Below are positions 50,837 through 59,314 of a DNA stretch of 64,000 nt, piece by piece (position 1 is the stretch's first letter; the number at the start of each line of letters is the position of its first letter). The notes beneath the pieces are model-generated. The model searched no databases. It saw only the letters and a program-made list of their open reading frames with translations, and was not told where the DNA came from. Made by a program: the position numbers and the translations under genes. The stretch lies in the NCBI GenBank assembly GCA_022729235.1, contig JALDAJ010000001.1, forward strand, positions 160,001 through 224,000, written 5' to 3'. Origin of the DNA: Candidatus Nanohalarchaeota archaeon. Its GTDB lineage: Archaea; Nanohalarchaeota; Nanosalinia; Nanosalinales; Nanosalinaceae.

Positions 50837-50868
50837 AAAGCTTTCTCCAACTGTTGAGGATACAAACC

Positions 50869-51369
50869 ATGGAAGCAAGAATTGAATCAGTACGTGAAAA
50901 CCCTCTGCTCGACAGGTTCGAGGTAGAGGTAACACTTGAACACGAAGGAGAATCGACACCGAGCGAAGAAGATGTAGTTTCAAGAATCGCAGCGGAAAAC
51001 AACCTCGACGAAGGCAACATCGAAGTAAACGGCATCTACACAGGCTTCGGTTCACAGACCTCAAGAGCAGAACTGAAAATCCGTGAAGAGTTCGACTATG
51101 ATGAAAACCTCGAGGAAGAAGCCGAGGATCGTGAAGAAGTCGGTGGTGTCGAAGAAACTAGTGAACCAGAAACCGAGGATGAAGAGGAAACAGAAGACGA
51201 AGATGCTTCCGAAGCCGACTACGAGGAACTCGTCGACAACACAATCAGCGACGCCAAAGACGCGCTCGAAGAACTCGAAGAACCAGACTACCAGGCAGCA
51301 CTCGAAGCAGAAAAAGACAACAAAAACCGCACAACATTCACAGACTGGCTGGAAAACCAGACTGAATAA
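50869..51369 (+). CDS. rps24e: 30S ribosomal protein S24e with acidic linker and appended C-terminal domain
   Basis: ENPLLDR, TPS and TGFG core motifs, conserved position after spt4, and a ~90-aa extension. Confidence 0.9.
   Translation: MEARIESVRENPLLDRFEVEVTLEHEGESTPSEEDVVSRIAAENNLDEGNIEVNGIYTGFGSQTSRAELKIREEFDYDENLEEEAEDREEVGGVEETSEPETEDEEETEDEDASEADYEELVDNTISDAKDALEELEEPDYQAALEAEKDNKNRTTFTDWLENQTE
51172..51366 (+). repeat. copy 1 of a coding repeat shared by rps24e and rpl24
   Basis: Identical blocks: 51172-51202 = 58406-58436, 51191-51211 = 58467-58487, 51271-51308 = 58547-58584. Confidence 0.92.
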
Positions 51370-51407
51370 AAGCTTAAAAGCACAGAGCGGAACAGGTGAA
51401 TTATCAG

Positions 51408-51605
51408 ATGGCGATTCTACGTAACGATGAAATACGAGACATGGACACCGGTGAACTCGAGGAGAAAATGAATGATTTACAGAAAGAGCTTGTCGAGGAA
51501 CGCGGTCAAATCGAAGTCGGAGGTTTTGCAGATAACCCTGGACGTATCAAAGAGATGAAGAAAACCGTTGCAAGGATTAAAACAGTTCTCAACGAACGCG
51601 AGTAA
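51408..51605 (+). CDS. rpl29: 50S ribosomal protein L29
   Basis: MAILRNDEIRDM and NPGRIKEMKKTVARIKT. Confidence 0.95.
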   Translation: MAILRNDEIRDMDTGELEEKMNDLQKELVEERGQIEVGGFADNPGRIKEMKKTVARIKTVLNERE

Positions 51606-51614
51606 AAAATACTG

Positions 51615-51926
51615 ATGTCAGAGACTTGTCCTAAATGTGGAATGCCTGAGGATCTTTGTGTATGTGATTCTATAGCCAAAGGCGAACAGACTATAACCGT
51701 TAAACTCGATACCAGAAGTTTCGGCAAGGAGATGACCGTTGTCGAAGGGCTTGACGATGGAGAAGTAGACCTGGGAGATCTCGCATCGACGCTCAAGTCG
51801 AAACTCGCCTGCGGAGGAACCGCCAAGAACGGTCAAATCCAGTTACAGGGCGACCACACCAGGAGAATCACGGAAGTACTAGTCGAGGAAGGCTTCGACG
51901 AAAGCCAGATAGAAGTGAACGCGTAG
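51615..51926 (+). CDS. sui1: translation initiation factor aIF1/SUI1
   Basis: CPKCGMPEDLCVC, LKSKLACGGT and LQGDH motifs. Confidence 0.96.
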   Translation: MSETCPKCGMPEDLCVCDSIAKGEQTITVKLDTRSFGKEMTVVEGLDDGEVDLGDLASTLKSKLACGGTAKNGQIQLQGDHTRRITEVLVEEGFDESQIEVNA

Positions 51927-51937
51927 CCGCATCAGCT

Positions 51938-52279
51938 CTATAACATACCTATCTCGGCATCACTGTAGTCAGTATCAAGAACCCTGACAACAGCTTCAAC
52001 CTCTGCCAAGTCGTTGAATTTATAGGACTTCTTTTCCCACGCCCTGTATACCTCATCGTCTTTCCAGCTTGAGGCGTATAGAAAGATGTCTGCAGACACA
52101 CCGTCTTCCTCCAGTTCAGTAACTACCTCTATCTCCAGTTCGGATCCCTCATACACATCGTTCTCCTCCATAAATCCTCTTACAGCCATTTCTACTTCCT
52201 CATCCTGAAATCCATATTCAGGCAGGTTACCCTGCGAGAAGTCTTCCTGTCCCCCCGGGCTCTCTTTATCGGTACTCAT
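51938..52279 (-). CDS. hypothetical protein
   Basis: 113-aa acidic ORF with TATA-like TTTATAA upstream. Confidence 0.65.
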   Translation of the reverse strand: MSTDKESPGGQEDFSQGNLPEYGFQDEEVEMAVRGFMEENDVYEGSELEIEVVTELEEDGVSADIFLYASSWKDDEVYRAWEKKSYKFNDLAEVEAVVRVLDTDYSDAEIGML

Positions 52280-52370
52280 AATGTCTTCATAAAGTAAGCT
52301 CGCCTTATAAACAAGAGTTCACAGCGCCGTAAACAATATTATAATAGGTCTCAAATCCCTGCCCGAGAAC

Positions 52371-52682
52371 ATGCCCGGCGCAGTATTTCTTGAAGGCGAC
52401 AGCATCAACCTACGGACAGTCGAAGAAGGAGACCTTGAGAGGATAAGAGACATCTACAACCATCCTGAAGTAAGGAGATTCATTACTAACGACCGACCTG
52501 CAAACCTCGAACAGGAACGCGACTTAGTCGCCCGTGTAATAGAATCCAACGAAGCGTCACAGCAGGTCTGGGAGAAACTCGGGTTCACGCAAGAAGGAGA
52601 GCTCCGGGAAGAAATCTTCAGGAACGGAGAATACGAGAACGCATATATCTACGGACTTCTAAAGGAAGAGTGGGGCGGATGA
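52371..52682 (+). pseudogene. RimJ/RimL-type GNAT with in-frame internal deletion
   Basis: The N-terminus (MPGAVFLEG...LRTVEE) joins directly to the C-terminus (ARV..SNEAS...EKLGF..EG). The acetyl-CoA motif A is absent. Confidence 0.7.
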
Positions 52683-53401
52683 GCGAGAATCTTTACGAAA
52701 ATCGGGCGAAGTACTACGACATCCTCTACCGTGACAAAAACTATGAAGGAGAAGTCGAGTTCATAGTCGAGAAGTTCGAGGAACACGCTGAAACGGATAG
52801 TAGAAGACTACTGGTGCTCGGGTGCGGAACAGGAAACCACTCGAAACACATCCAGGACCACGGTTTCGAGGTAACCGGTCTCGACCTTTACGAAGACATG
52901 CTTGAACACGCCAGAGAGAAATGTGATGGAGATTTCAGGCAGACCAATCTACCTGAGATAAACGCGGCGGGCGAATACGACCTGATCCTGATGCCGTTCA
53001 CTATTATCAACCATCTACCGGAAGAAAAAGCCAGGGAAACGTTGGAAAACGTGAAAGATATGCTTGCAGACGGCGGAGCCCTGATATTTGACAACGGAGG
53101 TTTCTCGCTTGATGAGGACGAGACCGTTTCAAAACCCTTTATAGAAACAGTATCTAAAGAAGAAGATGTCGGCAGGATTGGACAGGTACGGGATTCTGGA
53201 GAAAACCAGGTTACATTCAACTCCATGATTTTCACCCGCGAAGGTTTCTTCGTTGACGAACATGAACTCTGGAACTACGACGACACGGAGATAGAGAATA
53301 TCCTTGAGGAACAAGGATACAGGTACGAGAAAAACAAGGACGGCTACGGGACAGATTCACCGAAAGACCACGGAACAGCCTTCATAGCATGGAGGAGCTA
53401 G
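52679..53401 (+). CDS. class I SAM-dependent methyltransferase
   Basis: YYD..Y..KNY..E, LGCGTGNH, GLD and GGALIFD motifs. Confidence 0.9.
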   Translation: MSENLYENRAKYYDILYRDKNYEGEVEFIVEKFEEHAETDSRRLLVLGCGTGNHSKHIQDHGFEVTGLDLYEDMLEHAREKCDGDFRQTNLPEINAAGEYDLILMPFTIINHLPEEKARETLENVKDMLADGGALIFDNGGFSLDEDETVSKPFIETVSKEEDVGRIGQVRDSGENQVTFNSMIFTREGFFVDEHELWNYDDTEIENILEEQGYRYEKNKDGYGTDSPKDHGTAFIAWRS

Positions 53402-53402
53402 A

Positions 53403-53687
53403 ATGCCTATAACACCTGAAAACCTGCCGCGCCACGAACTTATCGGACTCAAAGCAGAGGTCGTGGAGAGCGAGGACGAGAACCAGACAGGTATCAAGGG
53501 AGAAGTGCTCGACGAGACACAGAACACGCTGAGAATCAGGGACAAACAGGTCGAGAAGAAGATCTCCGTGTTCCGTTTTACGCTTCCATCAGGAGAAAAA
53601 GTAAAGGTCGATGGCGAACTCATCGCGAAACGACCAGAGGAACGCGTAGACATGAAACTGCCCGGTAAATGGGAGCATCCAGACTGA
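53403..53687 (+). CDS. rnp1: RNase P protein Rpp29
   Basis: ITPENLPRHELIGL, DETQNT and RPEER motifs. Confidence 0.95.
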   Translation: MPITPENLPRHELIGLKAEVVESEDENQTGIKGEVLDETQNTLRIRDKQVEKKISVFRFTLPSGEKVKVDGELIAKRPEERVDMKLPGKWEHPD

Positions 53688-53703
53688 AAAAAGGATATAC
53701 TAC

Positions 53704-54012
53704 CTACAGACCTATATTTCCGCCTGAATTATCCTCTATCGAATATACAAAACCGTTCTCTTCGACCTGTTTACCTATACTTGGACTTGAGATACCAGCT
53801 CTCTTACAAAACCTCTTCACATCTCTTCGAATCCCGGGCTTGACAGAACCCTCATCCCAGCATATAGAAACCCACATACGGTCATCTGTAGTGCCTACAG
53901 AAACGCCGTATCGTCCATCAAAATTATCGTCTAGGAAATCTCGGAGTTCTTCCTCATACTCTTCACAAGAACCTATTTCCTCATAGACGGAGTTGGATGA
54001 ATCGCCAAACAC
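53704..54012 (-). CDS. hypothetical protein
   Basis: 102-aa AT-rich ORF. Confidence 0.5.
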   Translation of the reverse strand: MFGDSSNSVYEEIGSCEEYEEELRDFLDDNFDGRYGVSVGTTDDRMWVSICWDEGSVKPGIRRDVKRFCKRAGISSPSIGKQVEENGFVYSIEDNSGGNIGL

Positions 54013-54040
54013 TAACGAAAGGTTGAACTAGAACAGTTTT

Positions 54041-54583
54041 ATGGCTGATCGAGAAACACAGTATATGAACCTGGAGATAGACAACGAGAACTACAGCGCG
54101 ATGCAGATTGAAGGCAGGATAAGAGAGCTTGTGGAAGAAAACGAGCTCTGCTCACTCGCCACCGTACAAGAAAACAATAATCGCGATCCTTCAGCACATA
54201 TCGCCACCGCATGGTACGCATATGATGACGAACTCCGGCTCTACGTTCTGACGCCGCCCGACACCGATCACGCGAAGAACCTGGAAGAGAACGACTCCAT
54301 CGCACTCACCATTTTCGACAGTCACCAGGACTGGAGCGCCAAGAAGAAAGGGCTACAGGTGTTCGGGACCGCGGAAAAGATACCGGACGAAGACGCGGAA
54401 GAAGCGCTCGAACTCTACAACCAGCGTTTCCCGGGACTGGAGGAGCACGCGTCCACGACGGAAGAACTACAGGACCTCGACTCCAGCTTCTACGTGATAA
54501 CACCGGAGCGTATCAAACTTTTCGACGAGCCTGCCTTTGGAAATGAGACATGGATAACCGCCGAGCTCTACTACAGGGACTAG
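54041..54583 (+). CDS. pyridoxamine 5'-phosphate oxidase-like FMN-binding protein
   Basis: SLAT, TDHAKNL, GLQVFGTA and IKLFDE motifs. Confidence 0.85.
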   Translation: MADRETQYMNLEIDNENYSAMQIEGRIRELVEENELCSLATVQENNNRDPSAHIATAWYAYDDELRLYVLTPPDTDHAKNLEENDSIALTIFDSHQDWSAKKKGLQVFGTAEKIPDEDAEEALELYNQRFPGLEEHASTTEELQDLDSSFYVITPERIKLFDEPAFGNETWITAELYYRD

Positions 54584-54927
54584 ACTGATTCGTACCGGAA
54601 ATGTACTTCTAACTCGTCTTCATGAACAGCATCGACATACCAGTACGAACCCGAAGAAAGGAAAGTCGGCTCATATTTCTGACCGTATATCTCTCCTTCC
54701 TCTGCCATAACCTCCAACACACCTATCCACTCCTCTAGCTCTCTATCCCTATACGTTACAGGCTCTCCATACCTAAAATCATCGATTTCTCCACCAACAG
54801 ATTCTTCTCTAGCCGGGTAATCTAGTACGTCGAAATCATCCAGGTAGCCGTTATAACCCAATCTGTGAAAAGGATGGTTCAGCTGCCTCCACAACCTCTC
54901 TCTAAAAACAGGTCGAGCACCAGCCAT
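54580..54927 (-). CDS. hypothetical protein
   Basis: 115-aa ORF, convergent with and overlapping the previous stop. Confidence 0.55.
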   Translation of the reverse strand: MAGARPVFRERLWRQLNHPFHRLGYNGYLDDFDVLDYPAREESVGGEIDDFRYGEPVTYRDRELEEWIGVLEVMAEEGEIYGQKYEPTFLSSGSYWYVDAVHEDELEVHFRYESV

Positions 54928-54949
54928 ATTGTATTAAGACCGTGAGCGA

Positions 54950-55516
54950 TTAAATGCTGACATTCAGAACAGTATCTAAAAGCTCCGGGAACTCCTCATA
55001 GCCCGCGTCCTGGTTCAGGTGCTTCCCGCCCTCGATAACCTCCAGTTCCGCGTCAAGCTTCTCTTCAAGCTCTTCTGCTTTCTCCAGCGACACGTACGGA
55101 TCGTTGTCGGAATGGAAAATATAGAACTCGCCACAGCTCTCTCGGATATTTTCCCAGTTGAAATCGCGCTCTGCGAACGACTCGTTCAGTGGGTCGAACT
55201 TCTCTAGCCCTAGCGGACCGACGAAACCCGCGACCAGAAACGCCGCTTCGATTTCGAAATCCTTGATATCCAGTAAATCCAGTACGAACACTGCGCCCGT
55301 GCTGTGACCAATCATGATAGAATCTTCATTGATCTCATCCTCGTACTCTTCGAAAACTTCCAGCCAGTTCTCCAAGCTCTGACCGTCCATCGTCGGAAAC
55401 TCCGGCACAAACACCTCGAACCCGCGCTCCTCCAGCTCCTCCTTCAGCCATCGGAACCAGTGCTGACCCGGATTACTACCGGTGCCGTGGAAGATGAATG
55501 CTGTTCGGTTGGGCAT
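54950..55516 (-). CDS. RBBP9/YdeN-family alpha/beta hydrolase
   Basis: HG...HWF.WL, GHSTG, HSDNDPYV and GKHLN motifs. Confidence 0.92.
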   Translation of the reverse strand: MPNRTAFIFHGTGSNPGQHWFRWLKEELEERGFEVFVPEFPTMDGQSLENWLEVFEEYEDEINEDSIMIGHSTGAVFVLDLLDIKDFEIEAAFLVAGFVGPLGLEKFDPLNESFAERDFNWENIRESCGEFYIFHSDNDPYVSLEKAEELEEKLDAELEVIEGGKHLNQDAGYEEFPELLDTVLNVSI

Positions 55517-55602
55517 AAGACGAAATAGCTAAATACACAAAAAAATCTAACGGAACTGAGTTGTAACTATATAATAAATATTTTTCTGAGAAACTTCTCT
55601 CT

Positions 55603-56811
55603 ATGACCGACGTTGATTACGATGTAATAGTTGCTGGCTCTGGACCATCAGGAGGGCAGTTCGCTAGATACTTTACAAGAGAATCTGACTACTCTCTTGC
55701 TCTTCTGGAAAGAGATGAAAACCTAGGAGATAACGATAAATCAACGGCAGGGAGTTTTCCCGAGGTCGTAGACGAAAGAAATATCCCTGACTGGGTCGTT
55801 ATGGATGAAAACGAAGAAGTTATTTTGGAGAGTCCAAACGAGCAAGCTACTCTACCTATACATAACTACGTGCTAGACTTCCCTGCTCTGCAGGAATTCC
55901 TAGGACAAGAAACGGAAGAATACGGGGGAGATATCTACACTGATGCGAGAGTTGTCGGCCCTATAAGAGAAAATAACAGAGTTAAAGGAGTAGAATACGC
56001 GAACGGCTCTGGCGAGACGAAAGAAATGACAGCTCAAATAGTAGTAGATGCTACAGGACCTGCCTCAGTTATTGCATCGGAACTAGGATTATTCGATAAA
56101 GAACGGGCTCAGAATGCAGTGGGTCTAGAGTATGAGGCAAGAGGAAACTATGAGCCGGAAGACGCGATGGTTTTCAGCTTTGACCATGAAGACGCTCCTG
56201 GCGGATATGCATGGACATTTCCCTCCGGTGATGATGTCTTTAAAGCAGGAGTGTGCTATGTAGACGACTTTAGAGAAAAACACGGAGACGGACGTAACCT
56301 ACGGGAACTTGTCGATGACTGGGTCGAAGATGACAGATGGGAAATAGATGAAGTACGAGCAGAACATGGAGGAAGAGCTCTTTCTGACAACTCAATTAAT
56401 CAAAGAGCTACAGATGGCTTCATGGCGATAGGCGACTCCGTCTCCAGCATAAACCCTCTATTCGGTGAAGGTATTAGACCCGGAATGGAGTCTGCAGACA
56501 TGGCAGCCCAAGTAGCAATAGAGTCTCTTAAAGAAGATGACATCAGTGAGGAGAGCTTGAGAAGATATGACCAAAGATGGAATCAAGAAAAAGGTCGAGG
56601 CTGGAGAATCCAGAAGATTTTTGGTGAGCTGATATACGACTTCAATGAAAATCAACAAGATGAGTTTGTTAGAAGATCAGACCAGCTTTCAGAAGAAGAA
56701 ATAGAAGATTTCATGAGCTATGAAATCCCTCTAAGAACCTTAGCAAGGCTCTATCCCTTTGAGATCAAGGATCTAAAGAAAGCACCAGAACTTGGAAGAC
56801 ATCTGATTTGA
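55603..56811 (+). CDS. geranylgeranyl reductase-family flavoprotein
   Basis: GSGPSG, DKSTAGSFP, VDATG, PGGYAWTFP and GD...NPLFGEGI motifs. Confidence 0.88.
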   Translation: MTDVDYDVIVAGSGPSGGQFARYFTRESDYSLALLERDENLGDNDKSTAGSFPEVVDERNIPDWVVMDENEEVILESPNEQATLPIHNYVLDFPALQEFLGQETEEYGGDIYTDARVVGPIRENNRVKGVEYANGSGETKEMTAQIVVDATGPASVIASELGLFDKERAQNAVGLEYEARGNYEPEDAMVFSFDHEDAPGGYAWTFPSGDDVFKAGVCYVDDFREKHGDGRNLRELVDDWVEDDRWEIDEVRAEHGGRALSDNSINQRATDGFMAIGDSVSSINPLFGEGIRPGMESADMAAQVAIESLKEDDISEESLRRYDQRWNQEKGRGWRIQKIFGELIYDFNENQQDEFVRRSDQLSEEEIEDFMSYEIPLRTLARLYPFEIKDLKKAPELGRHLI

Positions 56812-56861
56812 GCAAGACAGACAAAACCCCTTTTAAAGTTTACTTTCTCTTGCGTAGTTAC

Positions 56862-56995
56862 GAGCTTTGTCCGCTTGGAGTCGGTTGATGACCGGATGCC
56901 TGTTGTCTGGGCGTCGGGTCTGAGGACGATACTCTGGGCGACCCAGTAGGAAAAACCTACCTGTCAGGTCGCTTTCTAGAAGACTTCAAGCGGAG
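56862..56995 (+). ncRNA. putative structured ncRNA with a C/D-type k-turn
   Basis: TATA TTTTAAAG at 56831, a 13-bp closing helix (56870-82 with 56982-94) containing a G-U pair, and TGATGA/CTGA boxes flanking a stem. Confidence 0.55.
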
Positions 56996-57081
56996 TATAA
57001 ACCCTCGCGGGTTTAATGGCCGAGAAACCGTTAACGGTTTCGTTCGGTTTAAAAGAGTTCGTTTCGAGGATTGAACACACG

Positions 57082-57378
57082 ATGTCAGACGGAAACAAGT
57101 CACAGAAAGCGGAAGAATTCCCGAAGAGAGGGAACTCCTTCGAGGGAGAGGTAGAGTCCACGAAGATGGACAAGTCCGCGACAGTAAGATGGGCGTATTC
57201 TGAAGAAGTCCCGAAGTATGAGCGTTACGAGAGAAGAAATACCAAGATAACCGTTCACGTCCCGGAAGATATCGAAGTAAGCGAGGGCGACCATGTAAAA
57301 GTTGTCGAGACCCGCCCGATTTCCAAGACCAAAAGCGCCGTGATAACAGAAATAATTCAAAACGGTGACGAGCAATGA
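57082..57378 (+). CDS. rps17: 30S ribosomal protein S17
   Basis: KMDKS, PKYERYERR and ETRPISKTK motifs; TATA at ~57048. Confidence 0.95.
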   Translation: MSDGNKSQKAEEFPKRGNSFEGEVESTKMDKSATVRWAYSEEVPKYERYERRNTKITVHVPEDIEVSEGDHVKVVETRPISKTKSAVITEIIQNGDEQ

Positions 57379-57431
57379 AGCTTTCCGCAGGAAAGACTTC
57401 TCGCAGAAATCACCCGAAAGGTGATTTCGAG
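57377..57431 (+). repeat. two-hairpin element with the SD in the stem
   Basis: CTTTCC-gca-GGAAAG, then TCGCA-GAAATCACC-cgaaa-GGTGATTTC-GA-GTG. Confidence 0.8.
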
Positions 57432-57829
57432 TGAAACCGGTAGGAGCAAATATTACAAGGACTCTGGACAAGGAAGCTGTTCTCACATGCGCTGACAACT
57501 CTGGCGCCCAGAAACTGCAAATAATCGGTGTCAAGCACACACAGGGCAGGCGTTCAAGAAGAGAGTCAGCTGGTGTAGGCGACATCGTAAAGGTCAAGGT
57601 TCTGAAGGGAGACCAGGAAGTCATGCACCAGGTCTTCGACGCAGTTATCGTGAGACAGGCAAAAGAATACCAGAGAGCCAACGGCATGAGGATTTCGTTT
57701 GAAGATAACGCAGCTGTACTTGTAGAGGAAAACATGCTACCAAAAGGATCTGAAACCCGTGGACCGATCGCGAAAGAAGTAGTTCAACGCTTCAGCCCGA
57801 TCGGAAAAATTGCTTCACAGGTGGTGTAA
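57431..57829 (+). CDS. rpl14: 50S ribosomal protein L14
   Basis: ADNSGA, AGVGD, FEDNAAV and GPIAKE motifs. Confidence 0.97.
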   Translation: MKPVGANITRTLDKEAVLTCADNSGAQKLQIIGVKHTQGRRSRRESAGVGDIVKVKVLKGDQEVMHQVFDAVIVRQAKEYQRANGMRISFEDNAAVLVEENMLPKGSETRGPIAKEVVQRFSPIGKIASQVV

Positions 57830-57878
57830 AATCATGACAAATGATTTTACGGCTCGCAGAAAATCTCTGATTTTCGAG
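57826..57878 (+). repeat. two-hairpin element
   Basis: GTAAAATCAT-gacaa-ATGATTTTAC, then CTCGCA-GAAAATC-tct-GATTTTC-GAG. Confidence 0.8.
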
Positions 57879-57889
57879 TGGTGTAAAAA

Positions 57890-58645
57890 ATGAGCGAAAC
57901 AGAGAACTGGAGCAGGGAATGGAACTCAAGCACGGATCCTTCCAAACAGCGCAAGTACAGGGATAACGCGCCGCTCCACGTAAAAGACAAGATGATTTCA
58001 GCTAACACCTCCGAAGTTATCAGGGAAGAACTCGGCACACGTTCGATCCAACTGAAAGTGGGTGACCGGGTAAGAGTCATGAGAGGCGATGAGAAAGGTA
58101 AGGAAGGAATCGTCAGCGACATCGACAGGGAGGAAGAAAAAGTATACGTACACGGCATAATTGTTGAACGAACAGATGGTACTGAAAGAGAAATCGCACT
58201 GAGACCGTCAAACCTGCAAGTCCAGGCGATGAATATCGAAGACGACATGAGGATGGAGAAATACGATATCGATGACTTCGAAGCTATCCGCGTTGAGGAA
58301 GAAGAGATGGAAGAAGCCCTCGAAGAAGACGAGGAAGGAGAGATGATGGAGCAGATGCAGACCGGAGAAAGCTCCCTGGAAGCAGGCGAAGACGAGGAAG
58401 AAGACACCGAGGATGAAGAGGAAACAGAAGACGAAGTAGACGAGGAGACATCCGAGGAAGAAACAGCAGAAGACGAAGATGCTTCCGGAACCGACTACGA
58501 TGACATCGTTGACAACACGATCAGCGACGCCAAAGAACAACTACAGGAACTCGAAGAACCAGACTACCAGGCAGCACTCGAAGCGGAAGAAAATAATAAA
58601 GATCGTAAAACCTTCAAAGAATGGCTTGAGAACAAAGCAGAGTGA
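57890..58645 (+). CDS. rpl24: 50S ribosomal protein L24 with acidic linker and appended C-terminal domain
   Basis: PSKQRK, APLH, GDRVRVMRG and PSN core motifs, plus a ~125-aa extension. Confidence 0.95.
   Translation: MSETENWSREWNSSTDPSKQRKYRDNAPLHVKDKMISANTSEVIREELGTRSIQLKVGDRVRVMRGDEKGKEGIVSDIDREEEKVYVHGIIVERTDGTEREIALRPSNLQVQAMNIEDDMRMEKYDIDDFEAIRVEEEEMEEALEEDEEGEMMEQMQTGESSLEAGEDEEEDTEDEEETEDEVDEETSEEETAEDEDASGTDYDDIVDNTISDAKEQLQELEEPDYQAALEAEENNKDRKTFKEWLENKAE
58406..58642 (+). repeat. copy 2 of the coding repeat shared with rps24e
   Basis: See 51172-51366. Confidence 0.92.
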
Positions 58646-58651
58646 TAATAT

Positions 58652-59314
58652 ATGGCACACGATAAACGACTCCCGGCACCAAAGCATTACCCTATCAAGA
58701 GGAAGGAGACTAAGTACATCTCCACTATAGAGGGTTCAAGAAGCCGTGAAAACGCTGTTCCCGCGGTAGTAGTGCTGAGAGAGATTCTGGGATACGCAGA
58801 GAACGAAACAGACGCGAAAAAGATAGTACAGGACCGCGAACTACTTAGAAACGGAGAACCGGTAACCGACATCAGGCAGGGTATCGGAATCCTTGATACC
58901 GTGGAGCTTCCAAAAACGGAGGAGGCTTACCGCGTACTGAGAAGCGGTCAAGACCTGAGATTTGTACCTGTAACAGATGAAGAGAAAGTCGTCACAAAAA
59001 TAGTAGGTAAAGATTCTGAAGGCGACGGTTACGTCTACCGGCTTCATAACGGAGAGAATTACAGGACGGATGACGAATACGCGACAGGTAACACGCTCAT
59101 CTTCAACTCCTCGGTAACCGAAGTAGAACTGGAAGAAGGAGCGCAGGTAGTAGTTATAGACGGTAAACACGCCGGTCAGATAGCAGAGCTTAAAGAGATA
59201 AGCGAACACCGCATGAACCCGGACATCGGCGTTATAGAAGCTGATACAGAGTTTGAGACACAGCTTAAAAACCTTGTAGCAGTGGAAAAGGTCCAGCTAG
59301 GTGAAGAACAGTGA
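58652..59314 (+). CDS. rps4e: 30S ribosomal protein S4e
   Basis: HDKRLPAPKHYPIKRK, LREILGYA, LHNGEN and GKHAG motifs. Confidence 0.95.
   Translation: MAHDKRLPAPKHYPIKRKETKYISTIEGSRSRENAVPAVVVLREILGYAENETDAKKIVQDRELLRNGEPVTDIRQGIGILDTVELPKTEEAYRVLRSGQDLRFVPVTDEEKVVTKIVGKDSEGDGYVYRLHNGENYRTDDEYATGNTLIFNSSVTEVELEEGAQVVVIDGKHAGQIAELKEISEHRMNPDIGVIEADTEFETQLKNLVAVEKVQLGEEQ

Follow-up and report, generated by a model that had tools for sequence, protein, structure and literature searches.

A predicted four-helix domain of an undescribed family on long tethers of eS24, uL24 and many other archaeal proteins, with a possible docking role

The window examined here is a stretch of 64,000 nucleotides from a nanohaloarchaeal genome (positions 160001-224000 of contig C1 of G000, a single-contig genome of 1,027,595 bases), and the element in question is a tail of 53 residues in which two of its ribosomal proteins, eS24 of the small subunit and uL24 of the large subunit, both end. 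The eS24 gene lies at window positions 50869-51369 (+), stop codon included, as found from the list of open reading frames (ORFs) and Pfam, and encodes 166 amino acids from an ATG; this is the form held in the protein collection as P0165. An alternative TTG start 15 nucleotides upstream, at 50854 (+), gives 171 amino acids. The canonical S24e core (PF01282) occupies 50878-51117 (+), residues 9-88 in the numbering from TTG, and is followed at 51118-51207 (+) by a linker of 30 residues, of which 18 are aspartate or glutamate (D/E, 60%) and 1 is lysine or arginine (K/R) by composition count. The tail domain then fills 51208-51366 (+) with 53 residues and a net charge of -14. The uL24 gene, at 57890-58645 (+), stop codon included, is recognized in the same way and encodes 251 amino acids. 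Its canonical core (L26/L24P and KOW, residues 14-123 by Pfam) is located at 57929-58258 (+), its linker of 75 residues with 43 D/E (57%) and 2 K/R at 58259-58483 (+), and its tail domain, again of 53 residues and with a net charge of -11, at 58484-58642 (+).

When the two whole proteins were compared by BLASTP, only the last 53 residues aligned, with 37 of 53 identical (70%), 47 of 53 positive, no gap and an E-value of 4e-23; outside the tail the proteins are unrelated. A profile of the family recovers the eS24 tail at E 2.3e-26 and the uL24 tail at E 2.7e-27. Both hosts are assigned by Pfam above the gathering cut-offs: eS24 as Ribosomal_S24e (PF01282) at E 1.2e-13 (51.4 bits against 24.5), and uL24 as Ribosomal_L26 (PF16906) at E 2.2e-14 (54.1 bits against 28.8) together with KOW (PF00467) at E 1.3e-7 (31.6 bits against 22.3). 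Scanning of both whole proteins left the two tails with zero Pfam coverage.

The uL24 tail, which is the first row of alignments A1, A4 and A8, was the sequence used for modelling with AlphaFold2 (AF2). An alignment of 7 rows already gave four helices at a predicted local distance difference test score (pLDDT) of 84, and 116 rows, with copies from 30-odd genomes, raised this to 94.8 with a predicted template modelling score (pTM) of 0.76 and no strand. The predicted helices span tail residues 5-10, 13-22, 28-37 and 42-52, and the same four-helix assignment was given to the eS24 tail. Across the 116 copies, residues E35 and R41 never vary and K17 hardly does, and the consensus of the domain reads DY..(I/L)V.GT(I/V).E.K........(P)D(Y)..LLEAE..(G/N)K.RKT(L/F)..WLE. 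The tail is thus predicted to fold by itself into a compact domain of four helices, and its family is undescribed. The initial annotation of this DNA had described one domain of about 50 residues appended to both proteins behind a long D/E linker, patterned and helical rather than of low complexity, and foreign to canonical eS24 and uL24. All of this is borne out: the Pfam cores stop before the linkers, the linkers have the lengths and composition given above, the tails are 70% identical, and the monomer modelling that it had proposed yields a confident helical fold.

The initial annotation had also allowed that the domain might prove to be a known module, and in the libraries searched no match was found. 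Seven copies searched against Pfam-A (2025 copy) and NCBIfam at E up to 10 reached at best 17.9 bits or less, all under the cut-offs, and these sub-threshold matches differ from copy to copy. The best match in PHROGs has an E-value of only 0.011, a profile search of PDB sequences returned nothing beyond chance-level ubiquitin likeness and coiled-coil noise, and Foldseek found no structure at E up to 0.001 in PDB or BFVD, the best fold match in BFVD being a Halorubrum virus protein. No description of the domain was found in full-text searches of the literature. In the available parts of two recent preprints (10.64898/2026.06.17.729505 and 10.1101/2025.10.11.676729) the domain is not mentioned; the available part of the former calls terminal indels in nanohaloarchaeal universal proteins 'difficult to interpret'.

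Several candidate relatives were considered. DUF8129 (PF26450, Pfam 38.1) appeared only as a lead from the ESM Atlas with a score of 0.80, which shuffled proteins reach a third of the time; the lead is a cluster of 56-residue viral proteins, of which 12% are labelled DUF8129. A viral link is shared, halovirus proteins being among those that carry relatives of the domain; DUF8129 is absent from the newer precomputed Pfam annotation of 120 listed carriers and of a stand-alone relative from Haloferax, and no mention of DUF8129 was found in the literature. HVO_A0114 (PF25212) matched one copy weakly (16.5 bits) and was dropped; in a set of 61 haloarchaeal genomes it also matches 14 of 14 control genomes, and it reads as a winged-helix regulator with a beta wing. 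Ubiquitin is resembled over residues 20-58 only, at about 12.5 bits and E of about 1 for single chains, and this was treated as chance, the low E-values for polyubiquitin arising from summed repeats. A beta-grasp fold does not agree with an all-helical, strandless model at pLDDT 94.8. Rho_N/HeH (PF07498) was rejected: it gave no hmmscan match at E up to 10 and, when the 116-row alignment was compared by hhalign with nine haloarchaeal Rho_N segments, a probability of 0.1%; its fold has two helices against the four predicted here, and Foldseek returned no such structure at E up to 10.

As the initial annotation had proposed, a profile built from the copies was run over all six-frame ORFs of the genome, and eight carriers were found. 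Seven have E-values of 1e-17 to 1e-27, and the eighth is a hyper-acidic protein of 544 residues with two weak N-terminal copies (E 2.6e-5). Four of the eight are ribosomal proteins, eS24 and uS3 in the small subunit and uL24 and eL31 in the large. The uS3 carrier has 360 residues, with KH_2 and Ribosomal_S3_C at residues 17-181 and a linker of 125 residues, and eL31 has 169 residues with a linker of 52; in eS24, uL24, uS3 and eL31 the linkers between Pfam core and domain are therefore 30, 75, 125 and 52 residues long, with 46-60% D/E. The others include a membrane protein of 226-241 residues in which an N-terminal domain is followed by an acidic linker and a transmembrane helix, a protein of 298 residues that begins with a winged helix (HTH_34, 28 bits), continues as a long coiled coil and ends in the domain, and a protein of 394 residues from an unknown family. 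Elsewhere on this contig, outside the window, C1:745318-745692 (+) encodes a small two-helix membrane protein ending in a C2H2 finger. Its homologues in three other genomes (G002, G015 and G020; L122, L121 and L150) have the tail domain at the end instead, so the C-terminal module of this protein has been swapped.

To extend the host range, every copy was fetched from 14 genomes, and hosts were classed by BLAST against G000 with the domain masked, giving 87 carriers. The domain is present on uS3 in all 14 genomes, and among the 87 carriers are 10 eS24, 9 uL24 and 7 eL31 proteins (at least one more among those left unclassified) and a single uL10, in G011. RNA polymerase subunit RpoA'' is a carrier in all four surveyed genomes of families f3 and f4, with one or two copies, and one FlaI-like ATPase (G027) has two copies; the remaining carriers are membrane or unknown proteins. 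A second census covered the Pfam families of the best 150 representatives of the clusters matched by profile A1. Ribosomal families are S24e (13), L31e (9), KOW (4), L26 (3) and S3_C, L32e and L22 (1 each); among the non-ribosomal carriers, which are likewise large machines or membrane proteins, the families are RNA_pol_Rpb1_5, KaiC, AAA_3 (MoxR), OapC, Gins51_C, Thioredoxin_4 and a caudoviral prohead protease (1 each), Zn_ribbon (2) and zf-C2H2 (3). The rest of these 150 are mostly without a family, and many are 190-240 residues long with the domain at residues of about 4-56, an architecture as in the membrane protein with the N-terminal copy. Tandem arrays were also seen, with copies separated by acidic spacers: three cytoplasmic copies on a membrane protein (P0003), four behind a winged helix and coiled coil (P0001), and five on a KaiC-like protein with C2H2 fingers (P0002). 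The union of a winged helix with one to four copies recurs in distant lineages (L006 1489-2385 (-), L070 1204-2880 (+) of G121, and P0001).

It can be seen that the domain is not ribosome-specific. In several lineages it has repeatedly been joined to ribosomal proteins of different kinds, at one end or the other. The initial annotation had seen in it a tethered module displayed on both subunits. The anatomy stands, with solvent-side copies on eS24 and uS3 and on uL24 and eL31; the specificity for the ribosome does not, for the domain is also carried by membrane proteins, the winged-helix coiled-coil protein, RNA polymerase A'', ETF-alpha, halovirus proteins, FlaI-like and KaiC-like ATPases and zinc-finger proteins. 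A related concern, that it might occur on many unrelated proteins without ribosomal enrichment, applies in its first half only: the hosts are indeed unrelated, but by raw count the enrichment in ribosomal proteins is strong, at about 41 of the 87 carriers in the 14 genomes.

The membrane carriers raise the possibility that the domain is a peripheral membrane anchor, which would bind the cytoplasmic face and hold ribosomes and other carriers there in a very small cell. N-terminal copies before a transmembrane helix (L005, L032, L035, L046 and L056) and C-terminal copies on small two-helix membrane proteins (L042, L044 and L122) agree with this reading, as do a FlaI-like ATPase (L063), an MCP-like protein (L059) and haloarchaeal ETF-alpha, and it would take in KaiC-like ATPases, receptor-like proteins and an origin-associated protein as well. 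Furthermore, uL24 and eL31 are situated near the ribosomal tunnel exit. However, uS3 and eS24 face away from the exit side of a membrane-bound ribosome, integral membrane proteins would need no anchor, binding to anionic archaeal lipids is disfavoured by a net charge of -11 to -14, and the hydrophobic residues all appear to be needed for the core of a 53-residue bundle. Anchoring to the membrane is considered very unlikely.

The breadth of hosts also bears on a passive reading, in which the knob and its charged linker would aid the folding, solubility or assembly of the host in cis, much as ubiquitin does on eukaryotic eS31 and eL40, or shield a disordered terminus from proteolysis and perhaps be removed or become irrelevant after assembly. 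An extremely broad host range would suit such a helper, and the most conserved positions fit cohesion of a mini-bundle (threonine helix caps, Trp/Tyr, and possible salt bridges among E35, R41 and K17). Ribosomal proteins are basic, against 46-60% D/E in the nanohaloarchaeal linkers, and ubiquitin offers the precedent of one domain on one small- and one large-subunit protein. Neutralization of charge is not general, however. The net charge of the copies ranges from -14 to +10 across genomes, and lysine-rich or neutral copies with the same motif occur on ribosomal proteins of low-GC, non-acidic genomes (uS3 of G028, and G406, G482 and G395). A halophilic solubility tag was rejected as the main explanation on this ground: lysine-rich copies of the motif on K/E-rich linkers in non-acidic genomes show that the domain is not a halophily device. 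A cap does not readily account for arrays of 3-5 copies or for the cytoplasmic copies of membrane proteins, copies from different phyla (G406 against the window copies) share about 60% identity, more than one would expect of a passive bristle, and inspection of the sequences on either side of the domain revealed no cleavage motif such as Gly-Gly. A purely passive role is regarded as unlikely.

In the phylum of the window, profile A1 matched 69 of 70 genomes, with 1-11 matches each, and the broadened 81-row profile A8 matched all 52 genomes that are at least 80% complete, including G028, which A1 had missed. The proteins of G028 are lysine-rich, and its divergent basic copy is at the end of uS3 (A8 E 4.9e-9). 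This gene (L168 1321-2247 (-)), in a genome of the same order, encodes a non-acidic uS3 with a K/E-rich linker, a composition unlike that of a salt-in halophile. Outside the phylum, A8 matched 6 of 209 sampled archaeal genomes, mostly on ribosomal proteins. In G097, of another phylum, eS24, uS3 and eL31 carry the domain, and the eL31 (L065 1000-1650 (+)) has two C2H2 zinc fingers inserted between core and tail. The domain is found on eL31 in G406, with about 60% identity to the window copies, on uS3 in G422, on uS3, an eS6-like protein and a coiled-coil protein in G482, and as an N-terminal copy on an eL32-like protein in G395, the names eS6-like and eL32-like resting on a reading of the sequences rather than a profile search. 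In G121 the repeats are of a divergent form and are borne by a KaiC-like ATPase, a zinc-ribbon protein, a small membrane protein and a further carrier in which four repeats accompany a winged helix; here the winged helix is C-terminal, and in the nanohaloarchaeal carriers it is N-terminal.

The survey of haloarchaea that the initial annotation had called for uncovered divergent copies in Halobacteria, where one or two weak matches were present in 85 of 201 sampled genomes. In the loci that were read, the matches are for the most part N-terminal on ETF-alpha (Pfam domains ETF and ETF_alpha), with one to three copies per protein, and no Pfam family covers these copies. The carriers (L101-L106, L109 and L093) are about 500-560 residues long, with divergent copies split by acidic spacers. 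Other relatives are an annotated stand-alone protein of 50 residues on plasmid pHM500 of Haloferax mediterranei, a GvpO-like protein of Halocatena, and an internal segment of gp106 of halovirus HCTV-1 (tblastn E 1e-2). When profiles were compared by hhalign, nanohaloarchaeal copies aligned with the haloarchaeal ETF-type copies at 98.1% probability (E 1.1e-13, 48 columns) and with the G121 repeats at 95.9% (E 6.4e-9, 50 columns), and the three sets can be regarded as one superfamily. Among 1.84 billion representative proteins, A1 matched 360 clusters (50% identity) within an E-value limit of 0.001, of which 133 also pass 1e-10; judged by these searches the family is real but small. A striking and recurrent affinity for ribosomal proteins is observed in nanohaloarchaea and in other small-genome archaea.

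Comparison of the three subfamilies indicates that the loop E-x(3-5)-K-x-R-x-T is best conserved in all of them, and this invites a further reading: that the basic loop (G/N)K-x-R-(K/T)-T, situated between helices 3 and 4, contacts RNA, DNA or a phosphate ligand and would give an extra handle to ribosomal proteins, RNA polymerase, GINS, OapC, zinc-finger and winged helix-turn-helix (wHTH) proteins. Many carriers are nucleic-acid machines, and where the proteome is less acidic the copies have a net positive charge, reaching +10. On the other hand, the nanohaloarchaeal copies carry -11 to -14 over 53 residues beside strongly acidic linkers, no similarity to Rho_N/HeH was obtained by hmmscan or hhalign, Foldseek gave no nucleic-acid-binding fold, and ETF-alpha, the FlaI-like, KaiC-like and GvpO-like carriers and the membrane proteins do not belong among nucleic-acid proteins. 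We consider a nucleic-acid or phosphate-binding module quite improbable.

The history of the copies was examined with the tails of ten genomes of family f1. Between genomes, the tails of one and the same ribosomal protein are on average 60.9% identical (124 pairs). For tails on different ribosomal proteins the mean is 58.2% (37 pairs) inside a genome and 55.6% (335 pairs) between genomes. With 58.2% against 55.6%, the idea that all copies in a cell evolve in concert is not supported, and apart from sporadic gene conversion the three means show no general sign that the copies of one cell co-evolve. The descent of the tails appears mostly vertical, with weak within-genome similarity. There are nevertheless individual pairs of another kind. 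In G000, the DNA of the eS24 tail (window 51208-51366) and of the uS3 tail (L002 1498-1659 (-)) is 88.1% identical, and only 3 of 44 codons at identical residues differ, whereas orthologous tails of G000 and G001 show differences at 17-23 of 36-40 such codons. A second pair, the tails of uL24 and uS3 in G005 (L133 and L137), is 84.3% identical. This indicates sporadic gene conversion among tails whose ribosomal host genes are unrelated, which implies in turn that copies may be functionally interchangeable, without specialization to the host. Tails within one genome thus appear interchangeable.

Two further observations concern the locus. Off-frame ORFs over both tails (window 51083-51424 (+) and 58479-58730 (+)) encode mutually similar peptides rich in K, T and Q; their likeness follows from the similar underlying DNA, and they are frame artefacts. 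In addition, ORFs on both strands at window positions of about 51940-56900 do not read as ribosomal proteins and interrupt the ribosomal gene cluster. They are positioned between a cluster of eS24, uL29 and SUI1-like genes and a cluster of uS17, uL14, uL24, eS4 and uL5, the names other than eS24 and uL24 being a reading of the translations.

The reading we favour, with middling confidence, is that the domain is a docking or localization module on a disordered spacer, its function being predicted. A compact knob at an extreme terminus, a spacer of 30-125 residues, and one to five copies spread over many machines are the features from which we infer binding to a target. One to five copies sit at the extreme N- or C-terminus, and a long linker, taken to be disordered, parts them from the host. 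Among nanohaloarchaea such a sticker is fixed on solvent-exposed ribosomal proteins, always on uS3, usually on eS24, uL24 and eL31 and occasionally on uL10, and is also displayed at the cytoplasmic ends of membrane proteins, on the winged-helix coiled-coil protein and, in sister families, on RpoA''. Each ribosome would then expose about four copies on tethers of 30-125 residues, and binding of a common target could co-localize or cluster ribosomes with the membrane, the DNA-bound wHTH protein and RNA polymerase.

As to the target of such docking, another copy of the domain itself is possible but doubtful, and a separate hub protein is held to be equally tentative. RNA or another phosphate-bearing ligand seems an unlikely target, and the membrane a very improbable one. 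A complex prediction for two domain copies, made with the 116-row alignment, returned a score of 0.00 (mark 0.42) and makes no call either way. A wider proposal, in which homotypic or hub-mediated 'Velcro' physically links all the machinery of gene expression in an ultra-small cell, is speculative and on balance unlikely. The winged-helix coiled-coil carrier would bring in the chromosome, and membrane proteins with N-terminal copies would bring in the membrane. The result might be a hard-wired coupling of transcription, translation and membrane insertion, or the clustering and partitioning of ribosomes. The domain would then be an invention of DPANN-type archaea that spread through domain shuffling and gene conversion.

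Several points weigh against docking. In so small a domain the invariant E, R and K, the threonine N-caps and Trp/Tyr could all be structural. Docking to ribosome or membrane does not obviously explain why the copies of Halobacteria are found almost only on ETF-alpha, and the diversity of carriers may leave room for a passive role in stability or in protection of a disordered end. The likeness of tails within a genome also barely exceeds that between genomes and is lower than that of orthologues.

Lineage-specific extensions of ribosomal proteins are common. What is unusual in this case is that one folded domain extends on long tethers from at least four ribosomal proteins of both subunits and is kept throughout a phylum, and that it has been fused repeatedly to other ribosomal proteins in unrelated small-genome archaea. 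Judged by its distribution, the domain is a lineage-specific ribosomal-protein extension and also a promiscuous adaptor, the function being predicted. Self- or hub-docking, if true, would provide a testable handle on the organization of ribosomes, RNA polymerase, DNA and membrane in ultra-small symbiotic archaea. The haloarchaeal ETF-alpha copies represent a genetically tractable model for the function of the domain. A new domain family can also be offered to databases, in which the tails are now annotated within S3, L24, S24e and L31e or as "hypothetical".

Among known systems, sticker-and-spacer scaffolds such as dockerin and cohesin or docking-domain systems are analogous in mode of action alone: small folded modules recur with disordered spacers between them, 1-5 times in the present case, on many unrelated proteins of a cell. 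The present domain differs in having no known receptor module and in carriers that all apparently face the cytoplasm, and no homology is claimed. Rho_N, HeH and SAP are also small and helical, with 35-55 residues, and are likewise found at the ends of many unrelated proteins in prokaryotes and viruses. We take the 'T-V-x-E-[VL]-K' of the first helix and the 'R-K-T-[LA]-x-x-x-[IL]' of the last to recall the Rho_N/HeH pattern, but profile comparison gave no relation of sequence or profile, and the domain has four helices, not two. In eukaryotes, ubiquitin is fused to eS31 and eL40, so that one small autonomous domain is again joined to a small- and a large-subunit protein. This would be the nearest genetic precedent, although fold, position and sequence do not fit: the present domain is all-helical, C-terminal and long-tethered, and lacks a Gly-Gly cleavage site.

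A further parallel is the stalk formed by P1 and uL10 (P0), in which a conserved C-terminal tail follows a flexible acidic linker. The P1 of G000 is built in this way, with EGLGELF as its last residues. In the same genome the uL10/P0 homologue, outside the window at C1:485597-486622 (-), has a plain D/E run at its end without a GLGxLF-type tail, and the P0 homologue of G011 ends in the tail domain (related loci are L158 1498-1812 (-) and L120 1501-2679 (-)). That the tails of eS24 and uL24 are themselves stalk-type, with a GLGxLF-like C-terminal peptide, was rejected, as they read ...WLENQTE and ...WLENKAE. The stalk element is a short peptide, limited to one site on the large subunit and specific to the ribosome, whereas the domain is a folded four-helix unit of 53 residues on uS3, eS24, uL24, eL31 and many non-ribosomal proteins. 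In both, several copies of one conserved element are presented on flexible, acidic, disordered tethers, which in the stalk catch partners, and the P1/P0 tail may be considered the nearest functional analogue of the domain on the ribosome.

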